Below the pieces are notes generated by a model. It was not told the origin of the DNA, did no database searches, and saw nothing but the letters and a program-made list of their open reading frames with translations. 64,000 nucleotides of DNA from Minisyncoccia bacterium (GTDB lineage Bacteria; Patescibacteriota; Minisyncoccia; Phycocordibacterales; UBA918). This document shows, in pieces, positions 8,096 to 48,022 of the stretch; position 1 is the first letter of the stretch; each line of letters opens with the position of its first letter. A program made the translations under genes and the position numbers. Location: assembly GCA_041738755.1 (NCBI GenBank), contig JBGSPE010000005.1, positions 79,872 through 143,871 on the forward strand, in the 5' to 3' direction.

Positions 8096-9172
8096 ATGTT
8101 CGCAAATCCAACAAATGTTGGCATTTCGCAACGGGTGGTCGCGACACTTGTTGCATGTGCTGTGGTACTTTCCTCAATCGGAATGTACGCAACTGCACAA
8201 GCAGCTAACTTAACAGAAATTAGCAATACCTTGTCTGACTCTAACCTTAGTGTCGCTTCATCACATACGATTGCATTTACCATTCCAACTGGTTCAACGC
8301 TTGTGGGAACACAAGATGTTGCTATCACATTCCCGTCAGGATTTACTGGCATCGCTGCTAACGTAGTGAGCGGGGACGTGACAGTGACAGTTGATGGAAC
8401 TCCAGACGCAGTCGGTACTTTCAGTGCCGTCGGTCAAGTCATTACGTTTGACGGAGTTGCAGCTACCGCTGGCCAGGAAGTAATCGTCGCGATTGCAGAT
8501 GGAAATATTACTAACCCAGGTACTGCTGGTTCCTACGAATTTGTAGTGACAACCGAAGCTGCTGATACTGGTAGAACTCGAGTTGCTATCATCGACGACG
8601 TGTTGGTGACAGCAATCGTTAACACTACCTTTGACTTCACCATCACCGGTCTCGCTACTTCAACTGCAGTCAATGGTACATCTACCACTGGTTCTACTTC
8701 GCCAACAGCAATTCCTTTCGGAACATTGGTGGCTAACCAAATCAAGACACTTGCGCAACGTCTCAATGTATCAACAAACGCCCGAAACGGCTTCGTGGTT
8801 ACCGTTGAGCAAGACAGTGACTTGCAATCAGCTACAGGTGCTGTTATCGATAGTTTCACAAACGGAACCTACGTTAACACTCCAGTTTCTTGGGCTGCTC
8901 CAACCAATAACGTGAACTTAGAAAACACGTGGGGTCACTGGGGTCTTACCTCAGCTGACGCAGACTTAAACGGTGACGAATTCGGTTCAGCCCTCTTCGT
9001 GGCTGCAAGTACTACTCCTCGAGAAGTATTTTCACACGATGGTCCATCTGACGGTACAACCGCTAATATCGGTGAAACCCAAGTTGGTTACCAGATTCAA
9101 ATCACGCCACTTCAAGAAGCGGCTGATGACTACAACACGACCTTGACCTACATCGCAACTCCTACCTTCTAA
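8096..9172 (+). CDS. Secreted surface protein with a shared N-terminal head domain and a WxL-like C-terminal domain (family A)
   Basis: Signal peptide present. The N-terminal pattern SD.LSDS...HTI.F...G..I.ITFP.GF is shared with the products of 10864 and 46865. The C-terminal region carries FGTL, GHWGL (a W-x-L) and a terminal YNTTLTYIATPTF, resembling the WxL domain (G-W-x-L ... L-T-W-T-L-x-x-P). Confidence 0.55.
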   Translation: MFANPTNVGISQRVVATLVACAVVLSSIGMYATAQAANLTEISNTLSDSNLSVASSHTIAFTIPTGSTLVGTQDVAITFPSGFTGIAANVVSGDVTVTVDGTPDAVGTFSAVGQVITFDGVAATAGQEVIVAIADGNITNPGTAGSYEFVVTTEAADTGRTRVAIIDDVLVTAIVNTTFDFTITGLATSTAVNGTSTTGSTSPTAIPFGTLVANQIKTLAQRLNVSTNARNGFVVTVEQDSDLQSATGAVIDSFTNGTYVNTPVSWAAPTNNVNLENTWGHWGLTSADADLNGDEFGSALFVAASTTPREVFSHDGPSDGTTANIGETQVGYQIQITPLQEAADDYNTTLTYIATPTF

Positions 9173-9185
9173 GGTATCGAGTAAG

Positions 9186-9226
9186 AACACAAAACTCGTA
9201 CATATTATATGTACGAGTTTTGTGTT
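9186..9226 (+). terminator. 20-bp perfect inverted repeat (hairpin) downstream of gene 8096-9172; likely a bidirectional terminator
   Basis: aacacaaaactcgtacatat / atatgtacgagttttgtgtt with a 1-nt centre; a U-rich sequence follows. Confidence 0.6.
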
Positions 9227-9297
9227 ATGTGTATACCCTACACCGGTGAACAATTCTTCAGTGGTATACTAGCCCTATTACACGTTATTGCTTATTT

Positions 9298-10383
9298 ATG
9301 CTACGCACATCGTCGGTCAGTGACTCATTATCTTTTGTAACTATACTACTGTCGCTATTGTTTATTTTTTCTATCCTTGTACCTTCAGTAGCGTCAGCAC
9401 AATCAATTGGTGTCAGTATTACACCAGCTCAGATTGAAGAAACCCTTGATCCTGGTACGACGCGACAGTTTACGTTTACCTTGCAGAATCTTAATCCAAC
9501 TGAGCAAACCTTTTACTTCTTCACTCGAAATATTTCTGGCGTACGAGACGGTGGCACACCAATATTTGCTGAGAATAACCAAGAAGTGACAGGGTATGAA
9601 TTGGCTGATTGGATTACGCTCGAGGCTACTTCTGCAGTAGTTCCAGGTGGTGGTAGTCAAGAGGTAAATTTCACCATGGTAGTACCGACTGATGCTTCTC
9701 CTGGAAGTCACTTTGGTGGGGTGTTTATATCGGTTGATCCGCCAGAGATCCAAAATAGTGGTGCGGCGGTTGGGTATCAAGTGGCAAATATTATCAGTAT
9801 TCGAGTTTCTGGAGATGCTAATAACTCAGCAAACATCAGACAATTTTCAACTGAAAGATATTTTCATGGTTCACAAAATGTAGATTTCTCAGTCAGAATT
9901 GAAAATGCTGGTAATGTTTTGGTGCGACCATCAGGACCGCTTGAGATTTATAACATGCTGGGACAACAAGTTGATTCAATTACGTTCAATGAAAGTCAAA
10001 ACGCTGTATTTCCTGCTGATACTCGAGAATATAATTTCTCATGGACTGGAGAAGGGGTGGGTTTTGGTCGTTATGAGGCTGTCTTGAGTGCGGTGTATGG
10101 CGATGAGGGTGCGAAGAAGACTATGTCCAGCACTGTTTCGTTCTGGATTTTACCAATGAATATTATCCTTCCGGCTTTAGGGATTTTAGCTTTTATCCTC
10201 CTTATAACCTTCGTATTCGTTCGCTTATATATCAAACGAACACTGGCAGGACTTTCTTCAGGGGGAACGAGGTTGGTACGAAAGCGAAAGCGAAATAGCT
10301 CATCAGCGACCCTATTACTTATTGTTTCGCTACTGACTGTCTCCTCACTATTCCTTATCGTACTCTTGGTGTTGTTTGCCTAG
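9298..10383 (+). CDS. TM-anchored surface protein, DUF916/DUF3324-like (CscA-like) or CARDB-like beta-sandwich (family B)
   Basis: Signal peptide, a roughly 270-aa ecto-region with V.N.GN motifs (FSVRIENAGNVLVRPSGPLEIYN), a GRYEAVLSAVYG motif, then a C-terminal TM plus a basic tail (RKRKRNSS). Paralogs are at 44299, 60520 and 61508. Confidence 0.5.
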   Translation: MLRTSSVSDSLSFVTILLSLLFIFSILVPSVASAQSIGVSITPAQIEETLDPGTTRQFTFTLQNLNPTEQTFYFFTRNISGVRDGGTPIFAENNQEVTGYELADWITLEATSAVVPGGGSQEVNFTMVVPTDASPGSHFGGVFISVDPPEIQNSGAAVGYQVANIISIRVSGDANNSANIRQFSTERYFHGSQNVDFSVRIENAGNVLVRPSGPLEIYNMLGQQVDSITFNESQNAVFPADTREYNFSWTGEGVGFGRYEAVLSAVYGDEGAKKTMSSTVSFWILPMNIILPALGILAFILLITFVFVRLYIKRTLAGLSSGGTRLVRKRKRNSSSATLLLIVSLLTVSSLFLIVLLVLFA

Positions 10384-10407
10384 CTTGTCAGGTTATACTA
10401 TATATGT

Positions 10408-10806
10408 ATGACAAGTACATCTGTATATCATCGAATTCTTAGAATTTCCGCAGTCGTGGTAGCGTTTGTATTGGTTTTTGAAAGCGGCCTGATTTCAGAG
10501 ACTACGGCACAATTATCACAAACTACTGAACTCTATCTTGCTAATGCAGTTGGAATGAGCGCCTCGGTAGAACCAACCGAGCTAAATCAGATGACAGCTC
10601 AACTGACCGCTCAGAAGACTCTTCTTGACCAGCGTGAGGCAGCTTTACGGGAGCGAGAAATAAATATCGAGTTTGGTAGTGGAGGAACAGACTACTCGAC
10701 GTATGTGCTGGCAAGTGTCTTATTTATCTTACTCGTACTGATACTACTCAACTACACACTGGATTATTTCCGGTACCGTGACCAAATGACGCTTCAGACT
10801 AACTAG
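10408..10806 (+). CDS. Small membrane protein with an N-terminal signal anchor, a coiled-coil and a C-terminal TM
   Basis: Assigned from hydrophobicity and a QKTLLDQREAALRERE coiled-coil segment; there is no homology clue. Confidence 0.4.
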   Translation: MTSTSVYHRILRISAVVVAFVLVFESGLISETTAQLSQTTELYLANAVGMSASVEPTELNQMTAQLTAQKTLLDQREAALREREINIEFGSGGTDYSTYVLASVLFILLVLILLNYTLDYFRYRDQMTLQTN

Positions 10807-10863
10807 GGCGAACCTGTGAAGTGTTCCGAAAAAGCCTCGTTAGGCAAGGTACAATAATAGGTA

Positions 10864-12774
10864 ATGAGTGTTTCTAAGCATGCAATTATCGTAGTGCTGC
10901 TAACTGTGGTTGGATTAACGGCGGTGCTACTTTCTTTTCTGCCGCAGTTTGTTAGTGCGCTTAATGTCCAGCGTTATAGTGACCTTATTAGTGACTCTGC
11001 ACCGACAGCTTCATCTAATCACACACTTCGGTTTGTGGTTGACACCGACGTAAATCCTGGAGGTGTGATAGAAATTACTCCACCTGAAGGGTTTGAAACG
11101 GTAGCTGATATTGGCTTTGATGTCAGGAATGTAGAGCTAACGGTTGATGGTACGACAAGAGTTGCGGGAGCAAGTGCGGGACCGGGAGTAGATCAGGTAG
11201 AGATTACACCGGGAACTCCGGGACAAATTCGCTACACCCTGGCACCTGACTCTGGTATTGGTAGCGGCGCAGAGATAGAGTTAAAAATTGGTAATCATAC
11301 CAGCAATGCAATCGGTCCCTCGTTAGAATTTAGTAGTACGACTGGTACCACTACCATCCCGGGAGATGTTGAGCCAATTATCAATAGTGCTGACACTGGT
11401 ACACATGAAGTAAAAATGGAGATTTACGATGGCGGACTCGGCTTGGTTGCCAGTGCGGGATTTCTGATTGCTGTCGTTGACCGAGTAGAAATTGCTGGTG
11501 TTGATACAACTGAAGAAGTGCCGCCATTTCGGTTTAATGGAGCGCCGACCTCTACGATTGGAGGAACTACACTCAGCGTTGAATTATCACTTGAAACTGA
11601 TGAGTTTGCGGTCTGTAGATTTTCAACAACCCCAGGTGTCAGTTACTTTGCAATGCCCAATCAGTTTGCTAATACAGGGATAATCTTCCATACCGTAGTG
11701 GTGGCTGTAACTCCGGCTACCTTCTATACCTTCTACGTTCGATGTATTGATGATGAAGGAAACTTCAATGTTGACGATTTCGAGATTGCGTTTGCTGTTA
11801 ATGAGACGCCAACCGGTGAGTCAAATGAAGAAGGTAACGTAGATGGTGACGGAACGGGGACTGGTAATCAAGGTAGTGGATCAGGTGGTGGCGGTGGTGG
11901 AACTTCCGGTTCGTCTGATGGTGAAGCACCAACGACGGGTGGAACTTCAGGTGGCGGTGGTTCAGGAGGTGGTGGCGGTGGTGGATCTGGAGGTACACGA
12001 GGAAACAGTGGCGGTGGAGGATTTGAATCAACTGACGCTCCGTTTCAAAGCGGAGATGGGCGAGTCGTTATCACCGGTTTGGCGTTCCCAAATAGTAACG
12101 TCACGTTTCTGGTCGATGGGAAAATTGCACAGTCTGTTCGGGCGGGAGGCAGTGGTGCCTATTCAGTGACGCTCGATGAGATTGCTCGCGGCGCGTATAC
12201 CTTCGGCGTGTATGCTACCGGAGCTGATGATGTGAAATCTTCCACATTTAGTACATCATTTACTGTCACTGGCGCCCGTACTTCGGCACTTTCTAATATT
12301 AATATTCCACCTTCAATTAGAGCTACTCCCGATCCGGTTGATCCTGGACAAGTGCTAACGCTTTCAGGATATGCAATTGCAAACTCAACCCTCACTATTC
12401 AAAATAGTCGTCTTCGTACATCTACCTCAGCAAGTGTACAAGCGACGGCGGATGGAAGTGGACGCTGGTCAACTACACTACAAACAAATAATTTTACGAA
12501 TGGCACATATCAAGTTCGAGCTCGGGCAGCGCAAGAGGGCGGAGCAACAACAAATTTTTCTGAATATACATTTTATGGCGTAGGTGAAGCAGCTGATGTT
12601 CCTATCAATGCCGATCTTAATACTGACGGAAGAATCAACTTGACTGACTTTTCTATTTTGCTGTTCTGGTGGAATAGTAACGGTGGAGATTCAGACCCAC
12701 CAGCTGATATTAACCGTGATGGAAGAGTCACGTTGACTGACTTTTCCATCCTACTGTTTAACTGGACTGGGTAA
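10864..12774 (+). CDS. Secreted protein with the family-A head domain, a Gly-rich linker, Ig-like domains and a C-terminal type-I dockerin
   Basis: The N-terminus is homologous to the products of 8096 and 46865. The C-terminus is a duplicated dockerin segment, DLNTDGRINLTDFSILLFWW ... DINRDGRVTLTDFSILLFNW, whose D1/N3/D5/G6/D12 residues match the dockerin Ca-binding loop. Confidence 0.75.
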   Translation: MSVSKHAIIVVLLTVVGLTAVLLSFLPQFVSALNVQRYSDLISDSAPTASSNHTLRFVVDTDVNPGGVIEITPPEGFETVADIGFDVRNVELTVDGTTRVAGASAGPGVDQVEITPGTPGQIRYTLAPDSGIGSGAEIELKIGNHTSNAIGPSLEFSSTTGTTTIPGDVEPIINSADTGTHEVKMEIYDGGLGLVASAGFLIAVVDRVEIAGVDTTEEVPPFRFNGAPTSTIGGTTLSVELSLETDEFAVCRFSTTPGVSYFAMPNQFANTGIIFHTVVVAVTPATFYTFYVRCIDDEGNFNVDDFEIAFAVNETPTGESNEEGNVDGDGTGTGNQGSGSGGGGGGTSGSSDGEAPTTGGTSGGGGSGGGGGGGSGGTRGNSGGGGFESTDAPFQSGDGRVVITGLAFPNSNVTFLVDGKIAQSVRAGGSGAYSVTLDEIARGAYTFGVYATGADDVKSSTFSTSFTVTGARTSALSNINIPPSIRATPDPVDPGQVLTLSGYAIANSTLTIQNSRLRTSTSASVQATADGSGRWSTTLQTNNFTNGTYQVRARAAQEGGATTNFSEYTFYGVGEAADVPINADLNTDGRINLTDFSILLFWWNSNGGDSDPPADINRDGRVTLTDFSILLFNWTG

Positions 12775-12844
12775 ATTTATTGACAATGTATTCATGTGGG
12801 TAACCTCATACATATACATTACAAACACCGTATACTATTAGAGT

Positions 12845-13345
12845 ATGTCCTTTTTACAAAGACTAAAAAGTCGCGGAGTCAGAAGTGGGGAAGCCTCACT
12901 ACAGTCTGATGCAGAAGAAACTGCAGCAGACAAAGTTGCTCAGCTGCACGTTGATGTGTACCAAACAGATCAACTTATTGTTGTATATGCCCAGTCAGCT
13001 GGAGCAGACATGAACGATGTGCACGTTTCGATTGAAGGTGACGCAGACATTGTACTGATTGAGGGTAAGCGAATTCGACCCGAGTACATTGTTTTCCCTA
13101 AAAAAATCATCAAGGGTTCATTTGTTGCAAGCGAGTGCGTGTGGGGCGATTTTTATCGCCGGATTATTTTGCCTGAGAGTGTAAATATTGATAAAGCAGA
13201 AGCAAAAATAAAAAATGGAGTTTTAATACTTATCCTACCTTTATTGAAGTCAAGTGAAAAAGAAAAAGTAAAATTAAAAGTGATGGGAACACGACCGCAA
13301 GCACGATCTCAAGCGCAGGCACGACCCCAACCACGACGTTCTTAA
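12845..13345 (+). CDS. Hsp20/alpha-crystallin small heat-shock protein
   Basis: Alpha-crystallin-domain pattern LHVDVYQTDQ...IEG...ILPESVNIDKAEAKIKNGVLILILP, with a basic C-terminal tail. Confidence 0.7.
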   Translation: MSFLQRLKSRGVRSGEASLQSDAEETAADKVAQLHVDVYQTDQLIVVYAQSAGADMNDVHVSIEGDADIVLIEGKRIRPEYIVFPKKIIKGSFVASECVWGDFYRRIILPESVNIDKAEAKIKNGVLILILPLLKSSEKEKVKLKVMGTRPQARSQAQARPQPRRS

Positions 13346-13356
13346 GTTCTTCATTT

Positions 13357-14898
13357 ATGTCAAAATTTTTCCATACTACAAACTTAAGCCTCTCCTTAAA
13401 GTTTTTTGCGATTGTCTTGGTATGGTTCTGTGTGTCGGTCTCATTTACATATGCAGCAGATCTTTCACTTTCACCAAGTAGTGGTTCGTATTCAGCTGGA
13501 CAGACATTTACCACAACTGTCCGAGTTTCACCCAATGGAGCTAATGTTAATGCAGTTGAAGCATCACTCCGGTTTAATCCAGCGGTGTTGTCAGTCGTGA
13601 GTGTGAGTAAAGGTCCGGCATTTTCATTGTGGACGACTGAGCCAACATTTTCAAACAGTGCCGGGACAATCCAATTTGGCGGTGGTAGCCCAGCTCCATT
13701 TTCAGCCGCTTCAAATCTTTTAACTATTACATTTAGAACGGTAGCTCCTGGTTCGGGCACCGTGTCATTCACCGGCTCATCGGTATTAGCCGCCGATGGT
13801 CGAGGGACTGATGTGTTTGAAAATGCAGCACCAGCTACTTTTGCAGTAGCGGCTGGAGCGGCACCAACACCTACCCCAACTCCTACTCCTACTCCTACAC
13901 CAACACCTCCTGCCGAAACGGGTAATAGTGGAGATGAGGCAATTATTTTCGGAGACCCACCACGACCACCAGAAATTGGTTCACCAATCTTCCTTGACCC
14001 AAACACCTGGTACAGCGACACAGAGGGAGTGTTTACGTGGACGCTACCATTTGATGTAAGTGCTCTGGCTGTGGAGATTACTGACAATGCTGAAAATCGT
14101 CCTGAGTTGAATCGAGCTGCAATTGTTGACCCACCGACTGAAGAATTTTTCATTACAAAAGATTTGATAAAAGATGGTGTTCAGTATATTAGTATCAATT
14201 ATCAGAATCAGGTTGGATGGGGCGCGCCAACGAATCGGAAGCTTCAGGTTGACACAACCGCTCCTGAACCATTTGCTATCAATGTACGAGCTGGTACATC
14301 TCCGAGCTCATTCCCACTCCTTAACTTTGAGGCGCTCGATGTTACTTCAGGAATTAACTTCTATGAAATGACGGTAGCGGACCGAGAACCAATTCGAATC
14401 ACTCCAGATGAAGCAAAGCTTGGGTACTTACTGACAGATCTTGAAGACGGTACCTATACAGTAAAGGTGGTAGCAACTGACATGGCTGGTAATATTCGCG
14501 AAAGTAGTGTCGCGGTACTTATTACAGCCGGTTGGATAAAACCGCTCGAGACACTTGAGGAAGGATCGATCTTTGATTTCCTCACTGCCAAAAATCTTCT
14601 CATCTTCTTCCTCTTCGTTGTGATTGCCTTGCAGATGGTATACATGTGGTACACGAGAAAGCATACAAGGGAGCGAGAAGAAAAATTACGTCGAGAAACG
14701 CGTGAAATTCAAGATCAGATGGAGAAAATATTCTCAGCGCTCCGTGATGAAATTTATGACCAAATTATCTCTATCACCAAACGTAAACGACTTTCACCAA
14801 AAGAAAAAGAAGCCATCGAAGGTCTAACACAAGCACTCGAAGTGTCTGAGACCTTGATAGAAAAGGAAATCAATGATGTGAAAACGATTTTGAAGTAA
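13357..14898 (+). CDS. Membrane-anchored cohesin-domain protein with a PT linker, an Ig-like domain, a TM and a cytoplasmic coiled-coil tail
   Basis: The cohesin-like domain spans about nt 13453-13866 (LSLSPSSGSYSAGQTFTTTVRVSPNGANVNAVEASLRFNPAVLSVVSV...). It is followed by a (TP)n linker, an Ig-like DGTYTVKVVATDMAGN segment, a TM (LLIFFLFVVIALQMVYMW) and a coiled coil ending IEKEINDVKTILK. Confidence 0.65.
   Translation: MSKFFHTTNLSLSLKFFAIVLVWFCVSVSFTYAADLSLSPSSGSYSAGQTFTTTVRVSPNGANVNAVEASLRFNPAVLSVVSVSKGPAFSLWTTEPTFSNSAGTIQFGGGSPAPFSAASNLLTITFRTVAPGSGTVSFTGSSVLAADGRGTDVFENAAPATFAVAAGAAPTPTPTPTPTPTPTPPAETGNSGDEAIIFGDPPRPPEIGSPIFLDPNTWYSDTEGVFTWTLPFDVSALAVEITDNAENRPELNRAAIVDPPTEEFFITKDLIKDGVQYISINYQNQVGWGAPTNRKLQVDTTAPEPFAINVRAGTSPSSFPLLNFEALDVTSGINFYEMTVADREPIRITPDEAKLGYLLTDLEDGTYTVKVVATDMAGNIRESSVAVLITAGWIKPLETLEEGSIFDFLTAKNLLIFFLFVVIALQMVYMWYTRKHTREREEKLRRETREIQDQMEKIFSALRDEIYDQIISITKRKRLSPKEKEAIEGLTQALEVSETLIEKEINDVKTILK
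13864..13911 (+). repeat. Coding microsatellite (ACNCCN)n encoding a (Thr-Pro)n linker
   Basis: acacctaccccaactcctactcctactcctacaccaacacctcc. Confidence 0.8.
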
Positions 14899-14928
14899 AA
14901 CCACTAATTAATCCCCATAAAACAAGCG

Positions 14929-14960
14929 TATCGCGTAAGTCTTCAGTGACTTACGCGATA
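14929..14960 (+). terminator. 13-bp perfect stem hairpin (tatcgcgtaagtc / gacttacgcgata, loop ttcagt) after gene 13357-14898; terminator-like but lacks a clean T-run
   Basis: Read directly from the sequence. An AT-rich stretch with tataat and an AGAGG RBS follows, ahead of the GTG start at 15005. Confidence 0.45.
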
Positions 14961-15004
14961 TACTTATAATTGCCACTACTTATAGCTGGCTTAGAGGTTT
15001 TTCT

Positions 15005-39631: not shown

Positions 39632-39688
39632 TCATGTATAGTGTGGAAGACTACAAAAGAGACCTTCAATTAATGTCATAATACTTTT

Positions 39689-41011
39689 ATGGCCAAACCG
39701 CTTATCGTCTGTCGGGATCTTTCGATTATTTACAACAAAGGTAAATCGAATGAGTTCCGAGCCTTGCAGGGGGTTAATACTGATATTTTTGAGGGAGAGT
39801 ATATTATTCTCTTTGGTGCGTCGGGCTCCGGGAAGTCTACGTTGATGTATTCCATCCAAGGATCACTTCCTCCTGGAGACGGAACCTTACTCATTCAAGG
39901 TGATGATATTTATTCGTACCCTCCCGCTGAGCGTGTCTATTTCCAACGGTATGTGATGGGGATTATTTTCCAATCGTTTAACTTGATTGGATCTTTGTCG
40001 GTCCTTGATAACGTAGCGTTACCGATGATTTTCTGTAACGTCGAGAAGACGGCTAGAAATAGACGAGCACAGTCACTCCTTGATCGGTTTGGAGTAGGGC
40101 ATGTCTCACACAAAATCCCTGCCATGCTTTCAGGAGGTCAGCAACAACGTGTATCAGTGGCTCGTTCGATGGTTAATGATCCAAGAATTCTTTTAGCCGA
40201 TGAGCCGACCGGTAACCTCGACTCGGTTTCAACGCAGCAGGTAATGGACAAAATTGACGAGATTAACACCTTTGATAGGCGAACCATTATCATGGTGTCG
40301 CACAATGCTGCGCACTTGAGTTACGCGCACCGGGTATATTATTTGAAAGACGGATTTATTGTACGTGAAGTTGTTAATCCGCAGCGTAAACAAATTAAGC
40401 CAGTACGAGAAGGGGAGACGATTGTAACCGAGCTTGAACAGCTCGCTCGACTCTTTCCGTATGACTCCGTAGAAACCCTGCGGGTTAAGAGTATGGTTAA
40501 TTTTTTGACGCAAGATTATACCTTCGACCAGATTATGAGACTTGAGCACGCCATGTCACTCTTCTTGCAGGGAAAGATTGATCGGGACGCAATGATAAAA
40601 AGTTTAGTACTACCACTTGAGCGCGGTGGAGTAGAGATTAATGAAACTGAAGCTCGGCGAATGGCATCAGTGGCTGAAAAGATGATTAGTCATGCCGATG
40701 ATATTCGTCGCTTCAGAGCTCGAAAAGATAATAACAATATCTTCTTTACCCAGCACAAATTGGCCGAGCGACTGCGAGACCACCTGACACATTTGTATCG
40801 AATCAAACTCTCCAAAGATCAGGACGAAAATCTCGTCGAGATGATAGCTGACCGAGTTACGGGGGTGATTGAAGAAGATGAGTTTAATATGCGTCTTATG
40901 CAAGGTATCAAAGCCGGTGGGTTAGGTTTCTCTGATAAAGAAGCGGATGAACTGACACGATATTTTGAGAAGATAATCGCTCAAGGAGTTGATGTGAGTT
41001 ACAAGAGTTAG
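39689..41011 (+). CDS. ABC transporter ATP-binding protein (MacB/LolD/FtsE-like) with an unusual C-terminal extension of roughly 200 aa
   Basis: Walker A GASGSGKST, signature LSGGQQQRVSVARS and Walker B ILLADEPTG are present. The core domain ends near aa 230 and the protein is 440 aa. Confidence 0.8.
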   Translation: MAKPLIVCRDLSIIYNKGKSNEFRALQGVNTDIFEGEYIILFGASGSGKSTLMYSIQGSLPPGDGTLLIQGDDIYSYPPAERVYFQRYVMGIIFQSFNLIGSLSVLDNVALPMIFCNVEKTARNRRAQSLLDRFGVGHVSHKIPAMLSGGQQQRVSVARSMVNDPRILLADEPTGNLDSVSTQQVMDKIDEINTFDRRTIIMVSHNAAHLSYAHRVYYLKDGFIVREVVNPQRKQIKPVREGETIVTELEQLARLFPYDSVETLRVKSMVNFLTQDYTFDQIMRLEHAMSLFLQGKIDRDAMIKSLVLPLERGGVEINETEARRMASVAEKMISHADDIRRFRARKDNNNIFFTQHKLAERLRDHLTHLYRIKLSKDQDENLVEMIADRVTGVIEEDEFNMRLMQGIKAGGLGFSDKEADELTRYFEKIIAQGVDVSYKS

Positions 41012-41021
41012 TGATTAGTAT

Positions 41022-42236
41022 ATGAGAATACAAGATCTAGCCCAGCTTTCAACCAGAATGTTTAAAACGAATCCACTCCGTACGTGGCTGACAATTTTAG
41101 GTATGGGAGTAGGTACAGGGGCGGTGGTGGTTTTGGTGGGGCTAGGGTTTGGCTTGCAGCAGATTATTCTTGAACAGATTGTGTTTGGAGAAACACTGCT
41201 TTCTTTGGGAGTTTCTTCAACTGGAGCGCAAGGTCTCTCACTGACGCCTGATACGGTTACCCAGTTTGAAAGTAATCCGGCGGTTCTTGATGCTGCGCCG
41301 CTCGCTCGCTTCCCAGCACTTATAACCTATAAGGGATTAACGGGAAATGTATTCGTACAGGGGGTTGAGCCGCCCTACCTACGGTACGCAGGAGTGACAG
41401 CTGAAGTTGGAGAGGTCTTCTTGGAAGAGGATGCTGGTGATACTAGTAGCATTATGTTGTCGCCAGCCGTTCTTAAGCTGTTCGGGATTGAGGATACAGA
41501 AATTGCAAATTTTATTGGAGAGCGCGTTTCGATTCGTCTGCTTGTACCGGCTGATGATGGAACAGAAAATGTTAACGAGATTATTATTGATAAAGAATAC
41601 ACCGTAAAGGGAGTCACCAAAGAACAAGGGGTGTTAAACGCCATGATGATGCTTCCAGAATTACGTAATTACGTTGGTATTGAAGAATACGAACGAATTC
41701 AAGTACGGGTTGATACCAATGAAAACTTGCCGCTCGTTGAAGAGCAGTTAATTGAAGAAGGCTATCGTGTGACGGCGCTTTCAAAGACGGTTGAACAAGC
41801 ATCACAAATTTTCCAAGGAATTCAGGCCGTGCTGGCGACGTTTGGCGGTATAGCGTTACTCGTATCTGCGATTGGTATGTTCAACACCATGACTGTGACA
41901 TTGCTTGAGCGAACGAAAGAGATTGGAATTATGCGTACCATTGGTGCGTCACCAAACGACGTTAAGTACCTCTTCGTATCTGAGTCAGTAGTTGTAGGGT
42001 TTATGGGGGGAGTGACTGGTATCGCTATGGGGGTCACCTTTGGAGTAGCGATAAATATTTTCCTCAACGTGCTGGCTGGGCAGTTTGGTGGACAGGCAGT
42101 ATCACTCTTTTCATTTCCCCTTAACTTTTTGCTCTTCATCGCAATCTTTTCGGCTGGGGTAGGGTACCTGACGGGTATTTTTCCAGCCAGACGAGCTTCA
42201 ACCCTCAATCCACTTGATGCGATTAGGTATGAATAA
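41022..42236 (+). CDS. FtsX/MacB-type ABC permease with TM1, a large extracytoplasmic domain and three C-terminal TMs
   Basis: The topology, and C-terminal TM helices with conserved Gly residues, are typical of the FtsX-like permease family. It is adjacent to the ABC ATPase, 11 nt downstream. Confidence 0.7.
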   Translation: MRIQDLAQLSTRMFKTNPLRTWLTILGMGVGTGAVVVLVGLGFGLQQIILEQIVFGETLLSLGVSSTGAQGLSLTPDTVTQFESNPAVLDAAPLARFPALITYKGLTGNVFVQGVEPPYLRYAGVTAEVGEVFLEEDAGDTSSIMLSPAVLKLFGIEDTEIANFIGERVSIRLLVPADDGTENVNEIIIDKEYTVKGVTKEQGVLNAMMMLPELRNYVGIEEYERIQVRVDTNENLPLVEEQLIEEGYRVTALSKTVEQASQIFQGIQAVLATFGGIALLVSAIGMFNTMTVTLLERTKEIGIMRTIGASPNDVKYLFVSESVVVGFMGGVTGIAMGVTFGVAINIFLNVLAGQFGGQAVSLFSFPLNFLLFIAIFSAGVGYLTGIFPARRASTLNPLDAIRYE

Positions 42237-42325: not shown

Positions 42326-44206
42326 ATGTTGTACAACAAAACGGAGCTTCCAAATTTAATGAACACTGCAGGAAAGATAACCATTACTACCGCTATAGCC
42401 GGCGTTGTCGTGTTTGCCTTTGCTCTTATGTTTGACGTCGGTACTACCGAACTGAGTCGAGTATCAGCTCAAACAGCGTCTACTACACTGACGGTGCTCA
42501 ATACACCTCCAGCATTTGTGGTGAATGCCTATGAGGTAATTGAGTCATCAACCACCACTCCAACCAACTCCGGTGACGTCGTTCAGTGGGCAGCTGTAGC
42601 AAACGATAGTAACGGTGCCCCATACTTCCTCCTTGTCTGTGACACCAACGCGACACCAACCGCTCGAGCTGCTGCTGATATCGGTTCACTTGGGACAAAC
42701 CCTCCAGTTTGTAGTTCAACTAGTACCGTACAGTGGGGTGTGTCAGCCGCTACTCCAAGCGATGCCTTGGCGACAGTTTCAACTACCACAACCGAGGGCT
42801 TTGCTGAGTCCAACAACTGGTACGCCTGGGTATGTGACGATGATCCTTTCAATCCGCGATGTAATAACATTCCCGTTCAAGGCTTCAGTGCCACCAACTC
42901 CTCTCCGTTTTATGTAAACCACCGACCAGTATTCTCTGCCTTTGGGAACAACGGTCCAGTTGACCCGGGAGGAACTCTCACCTTCACTTCGACTTCATCA
43001 GATCCGGACGTAGTGACTAGCCCCGACACCATCAGACTAGTCGTGTGTTCATCACCAACTGAATACAACATCACTACCAATAACTGTAACTCTGGATTTG
43101 GTATTGCTTCAAGCACCGTCGGCGTAACTACCGACGCCTCAGCCCAAGCGGTTATGGCGGCTATCATGCAAGACGATGACTACCCAGCCTACGGATTTAT
43201 TGTTGACCAACACGGACATGAAGCTGCAGCCAACGGAATTAATGAAGATTTCACCGTAAACAACGTCGCGCCAGTGGTACTTGGTGGTGACATCATTCTC
43301 AACGATGTTGATGATTTACTGCTAACTGTAGAAGGTGGTGAGACTACTGGATTCACACTAGAGTTCACCGTCACCGATGCAAACAGTTGTCAAAACGCTC
43401 TGGGTGGAGCTGAAATTACTGGTTATGCTGCCTCAGTGTTCCGTAGCAGTATTGGAAGTAGTACCTGCAATGGTCTAACTGGAGTCTATAATCCAAACAA
43501 CTGTTACCCAAGTAACGCTGCTACTACAACTTGGAACCTCTCATGTACACCATCTGCCTGTGGCGGTCCTACGACTAATAACATTGAGTACTCATGTACC
43601 TTCCCACTGTGGTTTGTGGCTGACCCGACTGACGAAGCAAACACTGATATTCCTGCAATTCTCGGTAATGATAGTTGGTCAGCTGCAGTTGGAGGGATTG
43701 ACGATAACGCCTTGATCGGAGTCATCGCTACCTCAACCGGTGTCAAAAACCTCATCAGTTTGACGGCCCTCGACCTTCTTTCTGCTGAAATTCCCTACGG
43801 CTCACTTGAACCTGGCGAAAACACTGGGACACTTGATGCAACTACTATCGTTCGTTCGGTAGGAAACACTGGTCTTGACCAAGAGTTGCGAGGAACGTCT
43901 ATGTGTGGAGGATTTACTGTACTTGTACCTTGTGCTCCAAACCCTGCAGCAACCATTCCTGAAGACCAACAACAGTTCTCAACTACAAGTCTGGCCTACA
44001 ATAGTCCACTTGCCTTATCACTTTCTTCAACAACAGATACTGAGCTTGAGTTAAACGTTGCTAAGTCAATCAGTACCTCAACACCGAACTCAGGTACTAC
44101 CTACTGGGGAATCGAGGTACCACTTTCTATCACGCTCGCCGGGGCATACTCTGGACTTAACACGTTCACTGCGGTGACAGCTGAAGCGGCTGACTGGGGT
44201 TACTAG
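42326..44206 (+). CDS. Secreted Cys-rich surface protein whose C-terminal domain is homologous to the C-terminus of the giant protein
   Basis: N-terminal signal anchor present. The C-terminal ~250 aa (FVADPTDE ... IPYGSL ... NTGLDQE ... DQQQFSTTSLAYNS ... TYWGIEVP) align with the giant's C-terminus (FHADPTDT ... IDYGAL ... EQQKFATSTFNYS ... VYWGIAIP). Confidence 0.6.
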   Translation: MLYNKTELPNLMNTAGKITITTAIAGVVVFAFALMFDVGTTELSRVSAQTASTTLTVLNTPPAFVVNAYEVIESSTTTPTNSGDVVQWAAVANDSNGAPYFLLVCDTNATPTARAAADIGSLGTNPPVCSSTSTVQWGVSAATPSDALATVSTTTTEGFAESNNWYAWVCDDDPFNPRCNNIPVQGFSATNSSPFYVNHRPVFSAFGNNGPVDPGGTLTFTSTSSDPDVVTSPDTIRLVVCSSPTEYNITTNNCNSGFGIASSTVGVTTDASAQAVMAAIMQDDDYPAYGFIVDQHGHEAAANGINEDFTVNNVAPVVLGGDIILNDVDDLLLTVEGGETTGFTLEFTVTDANSCQNALGGAEITGYAASVFRSSIGSSTCNGLTGVYNPNNCYPSNAATTTWNLSCTPSACGGPTTNNIEYSCTFPLWFVADPTDEANTDIPAILGNDSWSAAVGGIDDNALIGVIATSTGVKNLISLTALDLLSAEIPYGSLEPGENTGTLDATTIVRSVGNTGLDQELRGTSMCGGFTVLVPCAPNPAATIPEDQQQFSTTSLAYNSPLALSLSSTTDTELELNVAKSISTSTPNSGTTYWGIEVPLSITLAGAYSGLNTFTAVTAEAADWGY

Positions 44207-44239
44207 AAGAACATATATTAGGACACATAAATAGTCGAC

Positions 44240-44278
44240 AATAACCACTGTTATCCAGCAGTGGTTATTGATTTTTTA
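44240..44278 (+). terminator. Intrinsic terminator: 11-bp stem (aataaccactg / cagtggttatt), 8-nt loop, then gatttttt
   Basis: Read directly from the sequence, immediately after the stop at 44206. Confidence 0.8.
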
Positions 44279-44298
44279 GACTAAGTTACGGATAATTA

Positions 44299-45264
44299 GT
44301 GAACGTCTCCATGGGGGTATTTTTATACAAATCATTACTGGGAGTATTGCTAGTCGCGGTCTTTTTTATAAGCACTGGTGCTCAGTTTGTGCATGCTGGT
44401 TTTGGTATTACACCACCCTATGTGAGTAACACGAGTCTCACCAGGAACTCTATCTATGAGCAGCAAATCCTGCTTGTGCGTGGTGATCCTAATACGGCGC
44501 AAAATGCTGAAATTGTGGTTGATGCGCCTGAGATTGCTTCATGGATTGAAGTCATTGAAGGTGACGTTATCAGTCTTCCTCGCGGTGAACAAAAGGTTCC
44601 TATGACGGTACGGGTTACGGTACCAGCTGATGCTGAGTTCAAGACGTACCAAGGTTCTATTCGAATTCGAACGGTACCCGAAAGTGGTGAGGTAACTCAA
44701 GGAGCCGTAAATATTTCCCTAGGAGCCCTCGTCGATATTGATTTGACTGTTATTGATAGAGAAATTAAAGACTTTAGATTACGACGGGTATCTGTGGATG
44801 AACTAAATGAGGGAACGAAATTCTTGTGGTTGTTTTTCCCAGGAAAAGTTCGCTTTGATATGGCTGTAGAAAATATTGGAAACGTTGATGTTGCCCCATC
44901 AAAAGTTGACCTCAGAATCTATGATAGATCAGGAAAAGTATTGCTCGAAGAAACAGATAATATTGGGAGAGTAAAACGCATTAAACCGTACGCAACTGAA
45001 ACCGTCACTGCCAACATTCCAACCAGACTACCAGCAGGGAGTTACATTGCTCGTTACCGAGTTTACAATGATGATGAAGTCAAACAAGAAGGTGACTTGA
45101 GTATGAATATCCGTCCAGCTGGTACGCTTGAAACCGCTGGCTTTGGGTTCATTGGTTTATCAATGGCGCACAAAATATCAATCCTTCTCCCAATCTTCTC
45201 TCTTATAATTGCCGGACTGTACCTCTATCGTTCTCTACGGTCTAAACGACGACGAGGTTCTTAG
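44299..45264 (+). CDS. TM-anchored DUF916/DUF3324-like surface protein (family B paralog). GTG start at 44299, alternative ATG at 44311.
   Basis: Signal peptide, beta-rich ectodomain (DMAVENIGNVDVAPSKVDLRIYD; AGSYIARYRVYNDDE), C-terminal TM and an RSKRRRGS basic tail. Confidence 0.5.
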   Translation: MNVSMGVFLYKSLLGVLLVAVFFISTGAQFVHAGFGITPPYVSNTSLTRNSIYEQQILLVRGDPNTAQNAEIVVDAPEIASWIEVIEGDVISLPRGEQKVPMTVRVTVPADAEFKTYQGSIRIRTVPESGEVTQGAVNISLGALVDIDLTVIDREIKDFRLRRVSVDELNEGTKFLWLFFPGKVRFDMAVENIGNVDVAPSKVDLRIYDRSGKVLLEETDNIGRVKRIKPYATETVTANIPTRLPAGSYIARYRVYNDDEVKQEGDLSMNIRPAGTLETAGFGFIGLSMAHKISILLPIFSLIIAGLYLYRSLRSKRRRGS

Positions 45265-45267
45265 TCT

Positions 45268-46371
45268 ATGCCCTTATTACTAATCATTGTACTTTTAGGC
45301 GCAACGGCTGTATTTCCTTCGACACTCACTGCACAGTCATTTGCGACCACTACGTTGAGCCTCAGTATCTGCGGTAACTTAATTGTAGATGATGGCGAGC
45401 AGTGTGATATTCCGGGTGAGACGGGTCAGTACAGTCAAACCATTGTCGGTCGACAATGCACCGCCGAATGTAACTTTGGACCGTATTGTGGTGATGGTAT
45501 TTTACAGACTGTCTTTGGCGAGACGTGTGATGATGGTAACAACGAAAACGGTGACTTCTGTTCCGCTATCTGTGCTATAGAGCCAGCTGGTTCCGGTGGT
45601 GGAGGGTCTTCCGGCGGAGGGTCTGGCGGCGGTGGAGGGAGTAATCGTGAGCAAGGTGAGACTCAGGTAAATATCCGCGGTCGTGCCTATCCATCAAGAA
45701 CAATAAACTTTTTACTTGATTCTGAATCGGTTGGTTCGGTTCAATCAAATAGTACAGGAGCTTTTGAATTCACTACTGAAGCTTCGCCTGGTACAGCAAC
45801 CCTCGGAATTTGGGCAAATGACAGTTCTGGTACCCGCTCTATCACGTTGAATAACACCTTCGATGTAACCCAAGGAGCAATCACTAATATTAATGGTGTC
45901 GTACTGCCGCCAACGATTAGAATCGCTAATCAAAATGTTGATCCTGGGACACCGGTGATTGTCTCTGGGCAATCAGTTCCAAATGCTACCGTTGAATTAA
46001 ACGTTGACAATAGTGCAATCATTGAGACAACCACGGCCGGAGCCAACGGACAGTGGAGTATTACCTTGGCTGGCGGTCGTTTGTCAGTAGCAGCCCACAC
46101 CTTACGAGCGCGTACCATAACCGGCACAGCTCCGACTACGATACAATCGAGTTTTAGTAATTCACTACAGGTGTTTGTTGGTGTTGATGGTCAAGCTAGT
46201 ACACCGTCTGACTTGAGTCGTGATGGTCGGGTAAATCTTACCGACTTCTCAATACTTATTTTTTGGTGGCAGACAAATGGAGGAGATTCTGACCCGCCGG
46301 CTGATATCAATGGCAACGGAAGAGTTAGTCTCGAAGACTTCTCGATCCTTTTGTTTAATTGGTCGGGTTAA
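45268..46371 (+). CDS. Secreted protein with Myxococcus-type Cys-rich repeats, a Gly-rich linker, Ig-like domains and a C-terminal dockerin
   Basis: CGNLIVDDGEQCD and CGDGILQTVFGETCDDGNNENGDFCSAIC match the CGDG...ECDDGN...GDGCS repeat. The C-terminal DLSRDGRVNLTDFSILIFWW ... DINGNGRVSLEDFSILLFNW is a duplicated dockerin segment. Confidence 0.75.
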   Translation: MPLLLIIVLLGATAVFPSTLTAQSFATTTLSLSICGNLIVDDGEQCDIPGETGQYSQTIVGRQCTAECNFGPYCGDGILQTVFGETCDDGNNENGDFCSAICAIEPAGSGGGGSSGGGSGGGGGSNREQGETQVNIRGRAYPSRTINFLLDSESVGSVQSNSTGAFEFTTEASPGTATLGIWANDSSGTRSITLNNTFDVTQGAITNINGVVLPPTIRIANQNVDPGTPVIVSGQSVPNATVELNVDNSAIIETTTAGANGQWSITLAGGRLSVAAHTLRARTITGTAPTTIQSSFSNSLQVFVGVDGQASTPSDLSRDGRVNLTDFSILIFWWQTNGGDSDPPADINGNGRVSLEDFSILLFNWSG

Positions 46372-46864
46372 AATTTGTATTTTTAGTCATGATTTAGTTC
46401 TCGGTTCCAGGAATCTACTTTAGGAAAGAAGCAGATTCGGAACTGACCTAGATTTAAAAAGCATTTGCGATTATTAAATCGGAAATGCCCTTGTGGTGAA
46501 ATTCAGAATACCCCAGGGTACTTTCTCTTGATTTCCTCGAAATCAATTCACCTTGTAGTCGTTTTTCTCCTACTCACATTTAAATTGGTCAGGATAAATC
46601 ATCGCCGCTGCGATGATTTTTGTGTATAAGTGTAAAATTATTTTTTTGTACTCGAGTACAATGAATACGTATCTGCACGGGAGGTAATCAATTAGTATTA
46701 CTGCAGTTGAGTTATATCAGCTGGGCCCTTCAGCCGAGGGTTACTGCGCAGATGTACTTACAGAATATTTCAAATGAGGGAGTGGAGACCCTCTTTTGTA
46801 CGAAGTAATTCGTCCGTCACAGTCTTCGGGCTTCTACGGTCTGTAAGGTAATACAACGTAGAGT

Positions 46865-48022
46865 ATGTTTAGAGCGTCCAACGCGTTCTCACTACTCCAA
46901 GCTCTCGCAGCGATTGTTGGCTTCGCGATCATTTTATGGTCACTTGGTCTTCCATCACTCCGCTTCGCGGAAGCTGCAAATGTCATCTCGTTTAGCGACA
47001 CCCTATCGGACGCAAATCCGAATACGGCCGCTAATCACACAATTTCTTTCGCAACCCCTTCTGGTCTCAGTGCTGGTGATACTATCACCATCAACTTTGA
47101 AGCAGGAGAGTTCGGAGGACTAGATAGTCTCGACGACGGAGACTTTGACCTCGCAATCGATGGTGTCGATCAAGATCTAGCAGGTGCTGCTGCCGGGGCA
47201 ACCTGGGGCGTTACAGCTGCTGGAGATGTTGTCACTATTGAAAGCGGTACCGAAGCAATTGGGAGCGGTGCTACCGTCACTATTGAAATTGGTACCAACG
47301 CAACGCATCAGTCAAATGGTGTAAACCAAATCATTAACCCACTTACCCCTACGTCATATTCACTTGACTTAGTATTTGGTAACGACGGTACAAATAATGA
47401 TACAGGCAGCACTTTGGTTGCTATCGTTGACGATGTTACGGTCACTGCTTCAGTTGATACTATCTTCTCGTTCACTGTTGATGGAGTTGTAGCTACCACA
47501 TCGGTTAATACAGCTGACACAACAGGTGGCGATACCACTGCAACCACAATTCCATTTGGAACTTTGGAAGCAGATACCGCGAGCACTGCTGCGCAGGCAC
47601 TACAAGTACAAACAAATGCCGCCAACGGCTTTGTGGTTACCGTAGAAACTAACCAGCAACTAACTTCTGGTAACGGTGCGGATATTGATGGCTTCTCTAA
47701 CGGAGCCTTCACTGGCACACCGATATTGTGGGAAAGTCCAACAGCATCGCCTGGATCAGAAAATTCATACGGTCACTGGGGCCTATCATCAACTGATACC
47801 TCGCTGACAGATGGATTGAATGACTTCTTTGACGGTGGTGACAATTTTGTCTCTGCTTCAACTACACCAGTTGAAGTCTTCCGACATGATGGTCCAACTG
47901 ATGGTTCACCTGCGAATGAAGGTAATACCACAGTAATCTACAAGGTCGAAATCTCTGCTTTGCAAGAAGCAGCGAGCGACTACACCGCTACACTGACATA
48001 TGTAGCAACCCCAGTGTTCTAA
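46865..48022 (+). CDS. Secreted family-A surface protein with the head domain and a WxL-like C-terminus (paralog of the product of 8096)
   Basis: SDTLSDANPNTAANHTISF ... INFEAGEF at the N-terminus; FGTL ... YGHWGLSSTD ... YTATLTYVATPVF at the C-terminus. Confidence 0.55.
   Translation: MFRASNAFSLLQALAAIVGFAIILWSLGLPSLRFAEAANVISFSDTLSDANPNTAANHTISFATPSGLSAGDTITINFEAGEFGGLDSLDDGDFDLAIDGVDQDLAGAAAGATWGVTAAGDVVTIESGTEAIGSGATVTIEIGTNATHQSNGVNQIINPLTPTSYSLDLVFGNDGTNNDTGSTLVAIVDDVTVTASVDTIFSFTVDGVVATTSVNTADTTGGDTTATTIPFGTLEADTASTAAQALQVQTNAANGFVVTVETNQQLTSGNGADIDGFSNGAFTGTPILWESPTASPGSENSYGHWGLSSTDTSLTDGLNDFFDGGDNFVSASTTPVEVFRHDGPTDGSPANEGNTTVIYKVEISALQEAASDYTATLTYVATPVF

Follow-up and report, generated by a model that had tools for sequence, protein, structure and literature searches.

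The surface locus analysed here lies in 64,000 nucleotides of a Minisyncoccia bacterium (assembly GCA_041738755.1, contig JBGSPE010000005.1), hereafter the window, and the described system it most resembles is the Pam pilus of Candidatus Mycosynbacter amalyticus (Saccharimonadia), with its pilins PamA and PamB, its chaperones PamC and PamD, and the further proteins PamT and PamR (Troman et al., bioRxiv 10.64898/2026.03.03.709456). In these pili, adjacent subunits are joined in that the linker of one fills out the C-terminal domain of the other; linker and binding site are the most conserved parts. The PapD/FimC-like chaperones PamC and PamD are membrane-anchored and encoded alongside; tail-only PamT was proposed to sit at the tip, and the transmembrane (TM)-anchored, RbmA-like PamR at the base (10.64898/2026.03.03.709456). 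The family model NF058581 (CPR_Pam_pilin_C) derives from this preprint, which presents cryo-electron microscopy structures of the Saccharibacterium filaments (10.64898/2026.03.03.709456). A second point of reference are the WxL/WxLIP (Csc) clusters, which are viewed as peptidoglycan- and host-binding complexes and are mostly restricted to Firmicutes (PMC9772566, PMC10599100). WxL domains are defined by two conserved W-x-L motifs about 68-106 residues apart at the C-terminal end (PMC9772566), and Csc loci by at least one full WxLIP (DUF916, DUF3324 and a TM helix) within four genes of its partners (PMC10599100); an LPxTG protein is frequent in a WxL cluster, not obligatory. Finally, dockerin proteins with an unexplained role are found in genomes of the Candidate Phyla Radiation (CPR), one of them being essential in a Saccharibacterium (PMC10633639). 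In the cited literature a cohesin-dockerin module is described for neither WxL clusters nor Pam pili, and the text of the Pam preprint (10.64898/2026.03.03.709456) does not mention WxL, DUF916, cohesin, dockerin, 'Paceibacter' or 'Parcubacteria'.

Judged by the names of its homologs, the window belongs to a Patescibacteria (CPR) genome of Parcubacteria/Kaiserbacteria-like type, and it holds a cell-surface locus. An earlier note on this DNA had described three of its proteins as one putative binding head on two alternative anchors, one WxL-like and one dockerin-bearing. On balance, we slightly favour a different reading, in which this locus of a Parcubacteria-type genome encodes a remote version of the Pam pilus, assembled by donor-strand exchange, that had not been filed so far. 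All large open reading frames (ORFs) of the window lie on the + strand, and each product is named after the window position at which its ORF starts. For comparison, we used loci from four other genomes (L001-L004), including the complete Ca. Nomurabacteria chromosome CP060229.1. Relatives were sampled as 31 close p8096-family members, 130 diverse relatives, and the 150 best of 1280 representative clusters that match the C-terminal domain. The family cut-offs were 55 bits for NF058581, 22.9 bits for Dockerin_1, 24.1 bits for Cohesin and 27.3 bits for WxLIP_PGBD.

The shared N-terminal domain and the linker

Three proteins are central to the argument:

8096..9172, + strand: p8096, 358 amino acids (aa), candidate major pilin
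46865..48022, + strand: p46865, 385 aa, second pilin-type paralog with the architecture of p8096
10864..12774, + strand: p10864, 636 aa, with signal peptide, pilin-type head and dockerin and no pilin C-terminal domain

p8096 and p46865 align along their whole length with 43% identity (BLASTP E 3e-77). In pairwise alignments p10864 matches p8096 (E 2e-5) and p46865 (E 9e-12) only over its first ~100-150 residues; the better value belongs to p46865, whose head has insertions also found in p10864. Since these alignments included hydrophobic signal peptides and sequences rich in T, S, A, G and V, the comparison was repeated on mature segments, with signal peptides removed, by aligning family profiles in hhalign (p8096 family, n=31, residues 38-176; p10864 family, n=15, residues 33-213). 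The two profiles align over 131 columns with a probability of 98.7% (E 4.1e-16, score 98.6), whereas 30 column shuffles of the p10864-family alignment score 10.4-22.9 and the reversed alignment 22.9. A deeper head profile built from 112 diverse relatives raises the probability to 99.3% (E 1.8e-20, 144 columns). Because the score of about 99 stands against 10-23 for the shuffled controls, the mature N-terminal ~140-180 residues of the three proteins are homologous and not just alike in composition. The common N-terminal stretch of ~180 aa reported in the earlier note is thus borne out (profile-profile E 4e-16 to 2e-20) and stands clear of the shuffled sequence against which it was to be judged. 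Within the window, head hidden Markov models (HMMs) detect p8096, p46865 and p10864 and no other protein, and the observation that one N-terminal module precedes two very different C-terminal contexts in a single locus is supported.

In p8096, a signal peptide (residues ~1-37) is followed by the N-terminal beta-sandwich (~38-165), a conserved linker (~163-186, RVAIIDDVLVTAIVNTTFDFTITG), a T/S-rich loop, and the C-terminal domain (~204-358), here also called the tail. The AlphaFold2 model of p8096 shows residues 40-165 with a confidence score (pLDDT) >90 and 10 short strands, leaves the linker unplaced (171-200, pLDDT <50) and gives a beta-rich tail (pLDDT 60-76). Sequence searches against PDB chains, made with the full-length profile of the p8096 family and with the tail profile, returned no meaningful match.

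At least 1637 homologs of p8096 occur in Kaiserbacteria, Nomurabacteria and Parcubacteria (60-77% identity), and its family has >1600 members at 90% clustering. Conservation, measured in ten-residue blocks, is 0.49-0.71 in the N-terminal domain and rises to 0.79-0.83 in the linker and, in places, to 0.83-0.94 in the tail; the head is the least conserved part of the family, linker and tail the most conserved. The motif VAI(I/V)DDV.VTA.V, pointed out earlier as part of the head, is real and turns out to be the last head strand together with the start of the conserved linker (in p46865, AIVDDVTVTA at residue 186). It occurs in pilin-sized relatives and in the p10864 product, not in the giant proteins that share the tail. 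The most conserved stretch is the inter-domain linker at the end of the head, and a pilin N-terminal domain with a donor strand fits this better than a ligand-binding head. By analogy with Pam pili, we take the conserved linker as a candidate donor strand, and p8096 and p46865 are likely to be Pam-like strand-exchange pilins.

The signal-peptide region of p8096 (window 8096-8206, residues 1-37) is itself unusually conserved throughout the family, following the pattern MF..PT.VG...RVVA.LVA.AV.L.S.G.Y.TAQAANL with invariant M1 and F2, and its A(Q/E)AAN(L/V) junction is also present in p46865. Such conservation suggests that ordinary Sec targeting is not the only process to read this segment.

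The C-terminal domain and its chaperone-like neighbours

The tail of p8096 and p46865 recurs at the end of a third protein (local HMM E 4.9e-20):

54360..60512, + strand: p54360, 2050 aa, giant secreted protein with a pilin-type C-terminal domain at residues ~1881-2050 (nt 60000-60509)

The 1280 clusters mentioned above (50% identity) are those matched when 1.84 billion representative proteins were searched with a profile built from the three tails, 716 of them at E <= 1e-10. In the 150 best, the tail is always extreme C-terminal and the match ends at the last residue. The only family that recurrently matches the tail among the 130 diverse relatives is NF058581, the C-terminal domain of Pam pilins: it is found in 82 of them (best E 1.5e-10), in 23 of the 31 close relatives, in p8096 (E 3e-5, 24.2 bits) and p46865 (E 2.9e-5, 24.2 bits), and in p54360 over model positions 3-148 of 148 (E 3.3e-6, 27.2 bits). 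As all NF058581 scores fall below 55 bits, the tail is, judged by these profile matches, remotely homologous to the CPR Pam pilin acceptor (C) domain and no curated member of that family.

Presence of the linker sorts the tail-bearing proteins. Of the 150 best representatives, 120 show the motif (R)VAI(I/V)D.V.(V/M)(T/S)A just before the tail begins; these are pilin-type proteins of ~350-460 aa plus a few larger ones. Another 15 are giants of 1100-2469 aa or fragments, with a 'YYFRLYD' module and no linker motif. p54360 likewise carries 'YYFRLYD' (residue 1850) and has no linker motif upstream of its tail, and the tail-only relatives P0317 and P0405 are also without it. Three architectures can thus be told apart: acceptor-only (giants and tail-only proteins), donor plus acceptor (pilin-type proteins), and a linker-like strand without tail (p10864 family). 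On comparative evidence only, acceptor-only, donor-plus-acceptor and donor-only proteins would supply the tip, shaft and base that any strand-exchange pilus requires, and p54360, as an acceptor-only protein, is a candidate tip adhesin.

Directly upstream of gene 54360, the window encodes p52707 (52707-54296, + strand), a protein of 529 aa with an acidic, low-complexity N-terminal half, without a Pfam or NCBIfam match and without a clear signal peptide.

Four paralogs adjoin tail-bearing or giant genes:

9298..10383, + strand: p9298, 361 aa, membrane-anchored two-domain WxLIP (DUF916/DUF3324) homolog
44299..45264, + strand: p44299, 321 aa, fourth chaperone-like paralog, C-terminal TM helix at 287-305, directly after the gene of p42326
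60520-61551, + strand: p60520, 343 aa, WxLIP/chaperone-like with C-terminal TM helix, directly after the giant gene 54360
61472-62767, + strand: p61472, 431 aa, WxLIP/chaperone-like with C-terminal TM helix, next after p60520

All four have 320-430 aa, a signal peptide, two beta domains and a C-terminal TM helix (TM scan), and in the comparison loci a p9298-type gene always directly follows the pilin gene. BLAST relates p60520 and p61472 to p9298 (E 4e-43 and 5e-22, respectively), and p44299 matches both p9298 and p60520. As a reference we collected 68 genuine Firmicute WxL loci via the conserved WxLIP motif NQIDKxxxYFDLK, from which alignments of 15 large and 60 small WxL domains were built as well. 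A joint profile of the paralogs, p44299 included, aligns with Firmicute WxLIP over 248 columns and both domains (hhalign E 2.4e-15). PF06030 is above its cut-off for many p9298 orthologs and for p61472, which scores 29.1 bits against the 27.3 bits of WxLIP_PGBD.

The AlphaFold2 model of p9298 (pLDDT 80.6) consists of two beta-sandwiches and C-terminal helices. Its best Foldseek match in the PDB is 9i25_C, an E. faecium WxLIP bound to a long WxL protein (E 6e-13), with 9i1y also found; the next matches are the chaperone-usher chaperones CfaA, CupB2, CsuC, DraB, PapD, Caf1M and FaeE (E 5e-12 to 1e-7 for CfaA, CsuC, PapD and Caf1M). With its four WxLIP homologs, the locus places WxLIP proteins next to their partner genes as Csc loci do, and its operon encodes two-domain, PapD/FimC-like proteins with a C-terminal TM helix, as are the chaperones described for Pam pili. 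p9298 is a candidate pilin chaperone of the PamC/D type.

In p9298 (TM segments 289-307 and 340-358) and p61472, we observe two C-terminal hydrophobic helices with a basic loop (RKRKRN) between them, unlike Firmicute WxLIP with one TM helix only. Consequently, the C-terminus would lie outside again, or the second helix would be re-entrant.

The dockerin protein, the proposed assembly and its alternatives

The third bearer of the N-terminal domain, p10864, continues after this domain (~34-200) with a linker-like strand, FLIAVVDRVEIAGVDTT (~200-216), and with a further strongly conserved beta domain (~214-316, DTTE..PPFRFNGAP...FYVRCIDDEGN), which the earlier note had not listed. Then follow a Gly-rich part (~317-395), Big_6 (401-463), Big_13 (499-570) and the dockerin (583-630). 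The Gly-rich, Ig-like and dockerin modules proposed before are thus confirmed (Pfam Big_6, Big_13, and Dockerin_1 with 32.8 bits), and the dockerin contains two calcium-binding repeats, at residues 584 (DLNTDGRINLTD) and 615 (DINRDGRVTLTD). The tail HMM finds no pilin C-terminal domain in p10864. The alignment of its family with the pilin N-terminal domain takes in 'VAIIDDVLV' / 'IAVVDRVEI', and the linker-like strand of p10864 compares with RVAIIDDVLVTAIVNTT in p8096. A pattern D.V.(V/I).A.V(D/N)TT after the last head strand is common to the p10864 family and the pilins.

Gene order around p10864 is kept in the four other genomes: pilin, WxLIP-like protein, membrane protein of ~135 aa, dockerin protein of ~630 aa, HSP20, cohesin protein of ~510 aa, and a final giant of 6000-7800 aa, with optional FGE-sulfatase/ABC genes before the dockerin gene. 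Orthologs of p10864 have the same architecture and operon position in L001-L004, and each of these dockerin proteins carries a pilin-type head. The cohesin gene lies two genes downstream of the dockerin gene in L001, L002 and L004 as well. The proteins of the window that share dockerin or cohesin modules are:

45268..46371, + strand: p45268, 367 aa, Cys-rich DUF4215 head with a Gly-rich/Ig/Ig/dockerin cassette (Pfam DUF4215, Big_6, Dockerin_1)
13357..14898, + strand: p13357, 513 aa, membrane-anchored cohesin protein (Pfam Cohesin, 32.9 bits)
49367..51145, + strand: p49367, 592 aa, second membrane-anchored cohesin protein (Cohesin 31.0 bits; TM helix 484-502)
51858..52610, + strand: p51858, 250 aa, cohesin-like N-terminal part and dockerin-like end, possibly an adaptor

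p13357 consists of a signal peptide, a cohesin (46-143), a PT linker, Ig-like domains, a TM helix (414-432) and a cytoplasmic coiled-coil tail. It is 32% identical to p49367, and the TM scan gives both an extracellular N-terminal cohesin, a single TM helix and a cytoplasmic coiled-coil tail. The dockerin of p10864 and the cohesins of p13357 and p49367 are all above their Pfam cut-offs; the dockerin-like end of p51858 is just under the Dockerin_1 cut-off (22.4 versus 22.9 bits, E 1.4e-4), and BLAST matches p51858 to the cohesin regions of p13357, p49367 and p48343, the last being related to the cohesin proteins. A genuine dockerin, as the earlier note had it, is therefore encoded next to membrane-anchored cohesin proteins, and p13357 is a candidate receptor for it. 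A cellulosome, with its dockerins on carbohydrate-active enzymes, is not indicated: the three dockerin proteins have no catalytic domain, and the GH18 protein encoded at 4818-5996 has no dockerin.

Combining these results, we propose the following assembly. p8096 would serve as major and p46865 as second pilin. p9298, p44299, p60520 and p61472 would hold the incomplete C-terminal domains and give way to the linker of the following subunit. p54360 would occupy the distal tip as a giant adhesin, since it has the acceptor domain and lacks the linker motif. Because p10864 keeps the N-terminal domain and the linker-like strand without an acceptor domain, it may close the pilus at its base: its strand would enter the last pilin, no further subunit could be added, and its Gly-rich/Ig/Ig/dockerin stalk would bind the extracellular cohesin of p13357 or p49367 and so tether the base to the cell. 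Such a dockerin-cohesin base may replace the TM-anchored PamR of Saccharibacteria. We infer filament formation, linker donation, termination and anchoring by p10864, and binding of its dockerin to these cohesins; the assignment of p10864 as base or anchor subunit is tentative, a little short of even chances.

Several observations weigh against the proposed pilus. The window tails score 24-27 bits with NF058581, below its 55-bit cut-off, and p8096 and p46865 contain no cysteines, compared with 2-3 cysteine pairs in PamA/PamB. The strand 'TTFDFTITG', part of the ~40-residue linker, also occurs in tail-only and giant proteins. The linker of p10864 diverges after 'DRVEI', where the profile alignment ends, and escapes the regular expression that captures the 120 pilins. 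Cohesin-dockerin specificity is not predictable from sequence. An RbmA-like PamR was not recognised by Pfam or NCBIfam among the window proteins, no modelling having been aimed at PamR. Lastly, a conserved and abundant two-domain secreted protein could also form an S-layer-type coat.

The early end of the p10864 alignment also suits the explanation that p8096 and p46865 are Pam-like pilins and p10864 is an unrelated cohesin-docked surface protein, which recruited a pilin-type beta-sandwich as a structural or adhesive domain and whose 'linker' simply ends that domain as its final strand. Over 248 aa, p45268 shares 40% identity with residues 395-636 of p10864; as it carries stalk and dockerin under an unrelated Cys-rich head, the two form a cassette of their own. 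In the p10864 family, moreover, the linker is moderately conserved and the following DTTE..PPFRFNGAP domain highly so, and the family is much rarer than that of the pilins (at least 33 versus at least 1637 homologs). We nevertheless regard this explanation as unlikely. The p10864 orthologs are fixed within the pilin/chaperone/cohesin operon in five genomes, the D.V.(V/I).A.V(D/N)TT pattern is held in common with the pilins, and the base of a strand-exchange pilus needs a donor-only subunit in a locus where no PamR-like anchor was recognised.

In a rival model that extends the earlier note, a ligand-binding head is displayed on two anchors: the tail would be a divergent WxL domain that binds peptidoglycan non-covalently and is stabilised by its WxLIP-like neighbour, p10864 would present the head on a cohesin-docked stalk, and no filament would form. 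The gene context is indeed WxL-like. True homologs of WxLIP are encoded alongside, the dockerin and cohesin modules are authentic, the tail stands without exception at the C-terminus as in WxL proteins, and a peptidoglycan- and host-binding role is given to WxL and WxLIP in the literature (PMC9772566, PMC10599100). The C-terminal module shared by p8096 and p46865 is real, too, but it is not recognisable as a WxL domain. Pfam WxL (PF13731) matches neither protein at E <= 0.1, none of the window proteins, and none of the 130 diverse tail relatives at E <= 0.01. Comparison of the tail profile with the large and small Firmicute WxL alignments gives hhalign E 0.019-0.13 and a probability <3%, within the range of shuffles, whereas the large and small alignments, as a positive control, find each other with E 1e-18. 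The two W-x-L motifs are absent from the tails of p8096, p46865 and p54360: the first two proteins have one WGL each, at a non-canonical position, and the p54360 tail has none. The weak alignments are in register with the two WxL motif strands (NGFVVTV~GWxLxV; TLTYIATP~TxTWxLxDxP), with F-V-V and Y-I-A at the tail positions aligned to the motifs, and because they fall on these strands a very remote relationship of tail and WxL is possible. An LPxTG partner is missing, and the recurrent tail match is the Pam pilin acceptor domain. A head less conserved than linker and tail is the opposite of what a generic anchor leads one to expect, and the anchor model does not predict that presence or absence of the linker motif tracks architecture. 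Nothing indicates wall binding by the tail, and we consider this explanation distinctly unlikely. From the two alternative anchors, two C-terminal contexts remain, better read as those of a polymerising and of a non-polymerising, cohesin-docked subunit.

That p8096 is an S-layer or biofilm-coat protein, with a BslA-like Ig domain and a second domain forming a two-dimensional coat next to unrelated genes, is very improbable: CPR cells have been reported to carry S-layers, the p8096 family is very abundant and highly conserved, and its head gives a weak Pfam BslA match (E 0.006) and a Foldseek match to BslA (4bhu, TM-score 0.62-0.65), but this likeness is below the Pfam cut-off and that of a generic Ig fold, and a coat leaves the chaperone-like partner, the tail common to the giants and the Pam pilin C matches unexplained.

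Gene neighbourhood and comparison with known systems

Between the chaperone-like and the dockerin gene lies a further small gene, at whose position L001-L004 have genes for 130-142 aa:

10408..10806, + strand: p10408, 132 aa, N- and C-terminal hydrophobic segments and a coiled-coil middle

An HSP20/alpha-crystallin gene without signal peptide (12845-13345, + strand) separates the dockerin and cohesin genes, also in L001, L002 and L004, which puts a cytoplasmic small heat-shock gene inside a surface-protein operon. Between the end of the cohesin gene (14898) and the start of a giant gene (15005), we find a hairpin with a perfect-looking 14-bp stem (14928-14961), terminator-like on both strands. 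Promoter and terminator scans around the two pilin genes (8096 and 46865) gave nothing better than shuffles.

The giant gene (15005-38095, + strand) encodes 7696 aa with a signal-peptide-like N-terminus, and in other genomes orthologs with 6116-7839 aa and Pentaxin/DUF2341 matches stand at the corresponding place in the operon. Its last ~250 aa resemble the C-terminus of p42326 (42326-44206, + strand; E 2e-17), both ending in YWGI.(V/I)P. These C-terminal domains show no significant likeness to the tail of the pilins (hhalign E 0.04); with p42326 encoded directly before the chaperone-like gene 44299, they may represent a second kind of chaperone-handled end domain. A MacB/FtsX-type ABC pair (39689-42236, + strand), i.e., an ATPase and a permease with periplasmic core domain, stands between the giant gene/Fn3 protein and p42326, and a link to export or assembly of surface proteins is possible. 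Three tandem FGE-sulfatase-like genes are inserted between small membrane protein and dockerin gene in L001 (7172-9670) and L003 (12721-16984), the latter insert also holding an ABC exporter. These inserts are absent from the window and hint at post-translational modification of surface proteins.

Directly upstream of the pilin gene, a UmuD-like Peptidase_S24 gene (4302-4787, + strand) and a UmuC-like IMS/IMS_C/DUF4113 gene (6522-7778, + strand) flank the GH18 gene. They are preceded by genes for a CAP-domain protein and a peptidoglycan-binding Ig-repeat protein, and the whole upstream block is syntenic in L002-L004. Two other kinds of surface fibre were considered and rejected. For a TasA/camelysin-type fibre there is no dedicated signal peptidase in support, since the Peptidase_S24 at 4302 adjoins a UmuC homolog and is most likely UmuD. 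Sortase-assembled pili do not apply to a window without sortase and without LPxTG motif; none of its 28 ORFs has an LPxTG-like motif near the C-terminus.

CPR bacteria account for much of the diversity of bacteria and live in attachment to other cells; to our knowledge, the means of host attachment have been worked out in only a few cultured Saccharibacteria. If the locus does encode a Pam-like strand-exchange pilus, a widespread and conserved 'hypothetical protein' family of Parcubacteria-type genomes would be assigned to a class of pili discovered only recently, the dockerin and cohesin proteins of CPR genomes, so far unexplained, may serve to tether surface assemblies, and pilus tips could be where giant adhesins of at least 2000 aa are displayed. 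A link to chaperone-type pilus assembly would likewise be drawn for the WxL/WxLIP clusters of Enterococcus and Listeria, which are of medical relevance, because the WxLIP homology is clear and the chaperone fold is common to both. A still wider reading, which we hold to be rather doubtful, is that a pilin N-terminal domain and donor strand on a dockerin stalk form a new type of terminator, that the WxLIP family serves both this system and the Firmicute WxL clusters, and that WxL clusters, Pam pili and the present system belong to one ancient monoderm family of chaperone-assisted, usher-less surface assemblies, in which WxL proteins, too, may assemble by strand complementation.

Comparison with the Pam pili draws on the family model and the published description. 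Both systems occur in CPR hosts. p8096 and p46865 have about the size of PamB (~36-39 kDa) and share the succession of Sec signal peptide, N-terminal beta-sandwich, linker and C-terminal domain, the recurrent NF058581 matches of the tail, and, in the p8096 family, the conservation peak at linker and tail. Two-domain chaperone-like proteins with a C-terminal TM helix and acceptor-only proteins accompany the pilins in both. In contrast to Pam, the window lineage is of Parcubacteria/Kaiserbacteria type, its pilins are free of cysteines and reach at most ~27 of the 55 bits of NF058581, and the acceptor-only proteins include giants of 1100-2469 aa instead of small PamT only. A dockerin-bearing donor-only protein and membrane cohesins stand in the operon in place of a recognised PamR, and the window does not show the ATP-synthase genes that are reported to neighbour pam operons.

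With the Csc clusters of Lactobacillales, Listeria and Enterococcus (PF13731, PF06030, PF11797; structures 9i1y and 9i25), the locus shares the WxLIP component of 320-430 aa with its C-terminal TM helix. It differs in phylum, in a partner domain that is not detectably WxL and has one W-x-L instead of two, and in the missing LPxTG protein; WxL proteins are moreover described as peptidoglycan-bound monomers and not as filaments. Chaperone-usher pili (Pap/Fim, CFA/I, Csu, Caf1) show the two-domain chaperone fold of the p9298 model and a corresponding set of subunits, namely acceptor-only tip adhesin, donor-plus-acceptor shaft and a last subunit that cannot be extended (PapH). Here, however, both outer membrane and usher are missing, the putative chaperones are anchored in the membrane, the proposed donor is an internal linker instead of an N-terminal extension, and the proposed terminator p10864 has a dockerin and no pilin acceptor fold.

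Cohesin-dockerin assemblies, cellulosomal and non-cellulosomal, share with the locus a type-I-like dockerin with two calcium-binding repeats, cohesins on cell-bound scaffold proteins, and, in p51858, a possible adaptor. The present dockerins carry no carbohydrate-active enzyme, the cargo is a pilin-type domain, and the cohesin proteins are single-cohesin and TM-anchored with cytoplasmic coiled-coil tails, unlike SLH- or sortase-anchored multi-cohesin scaffoldins. By its sequences, the locus formally belongs to neither the WxL nor the curated Pam pilin family; it has the chaperone component in common with the former and a remote acceptor domain with the latter.

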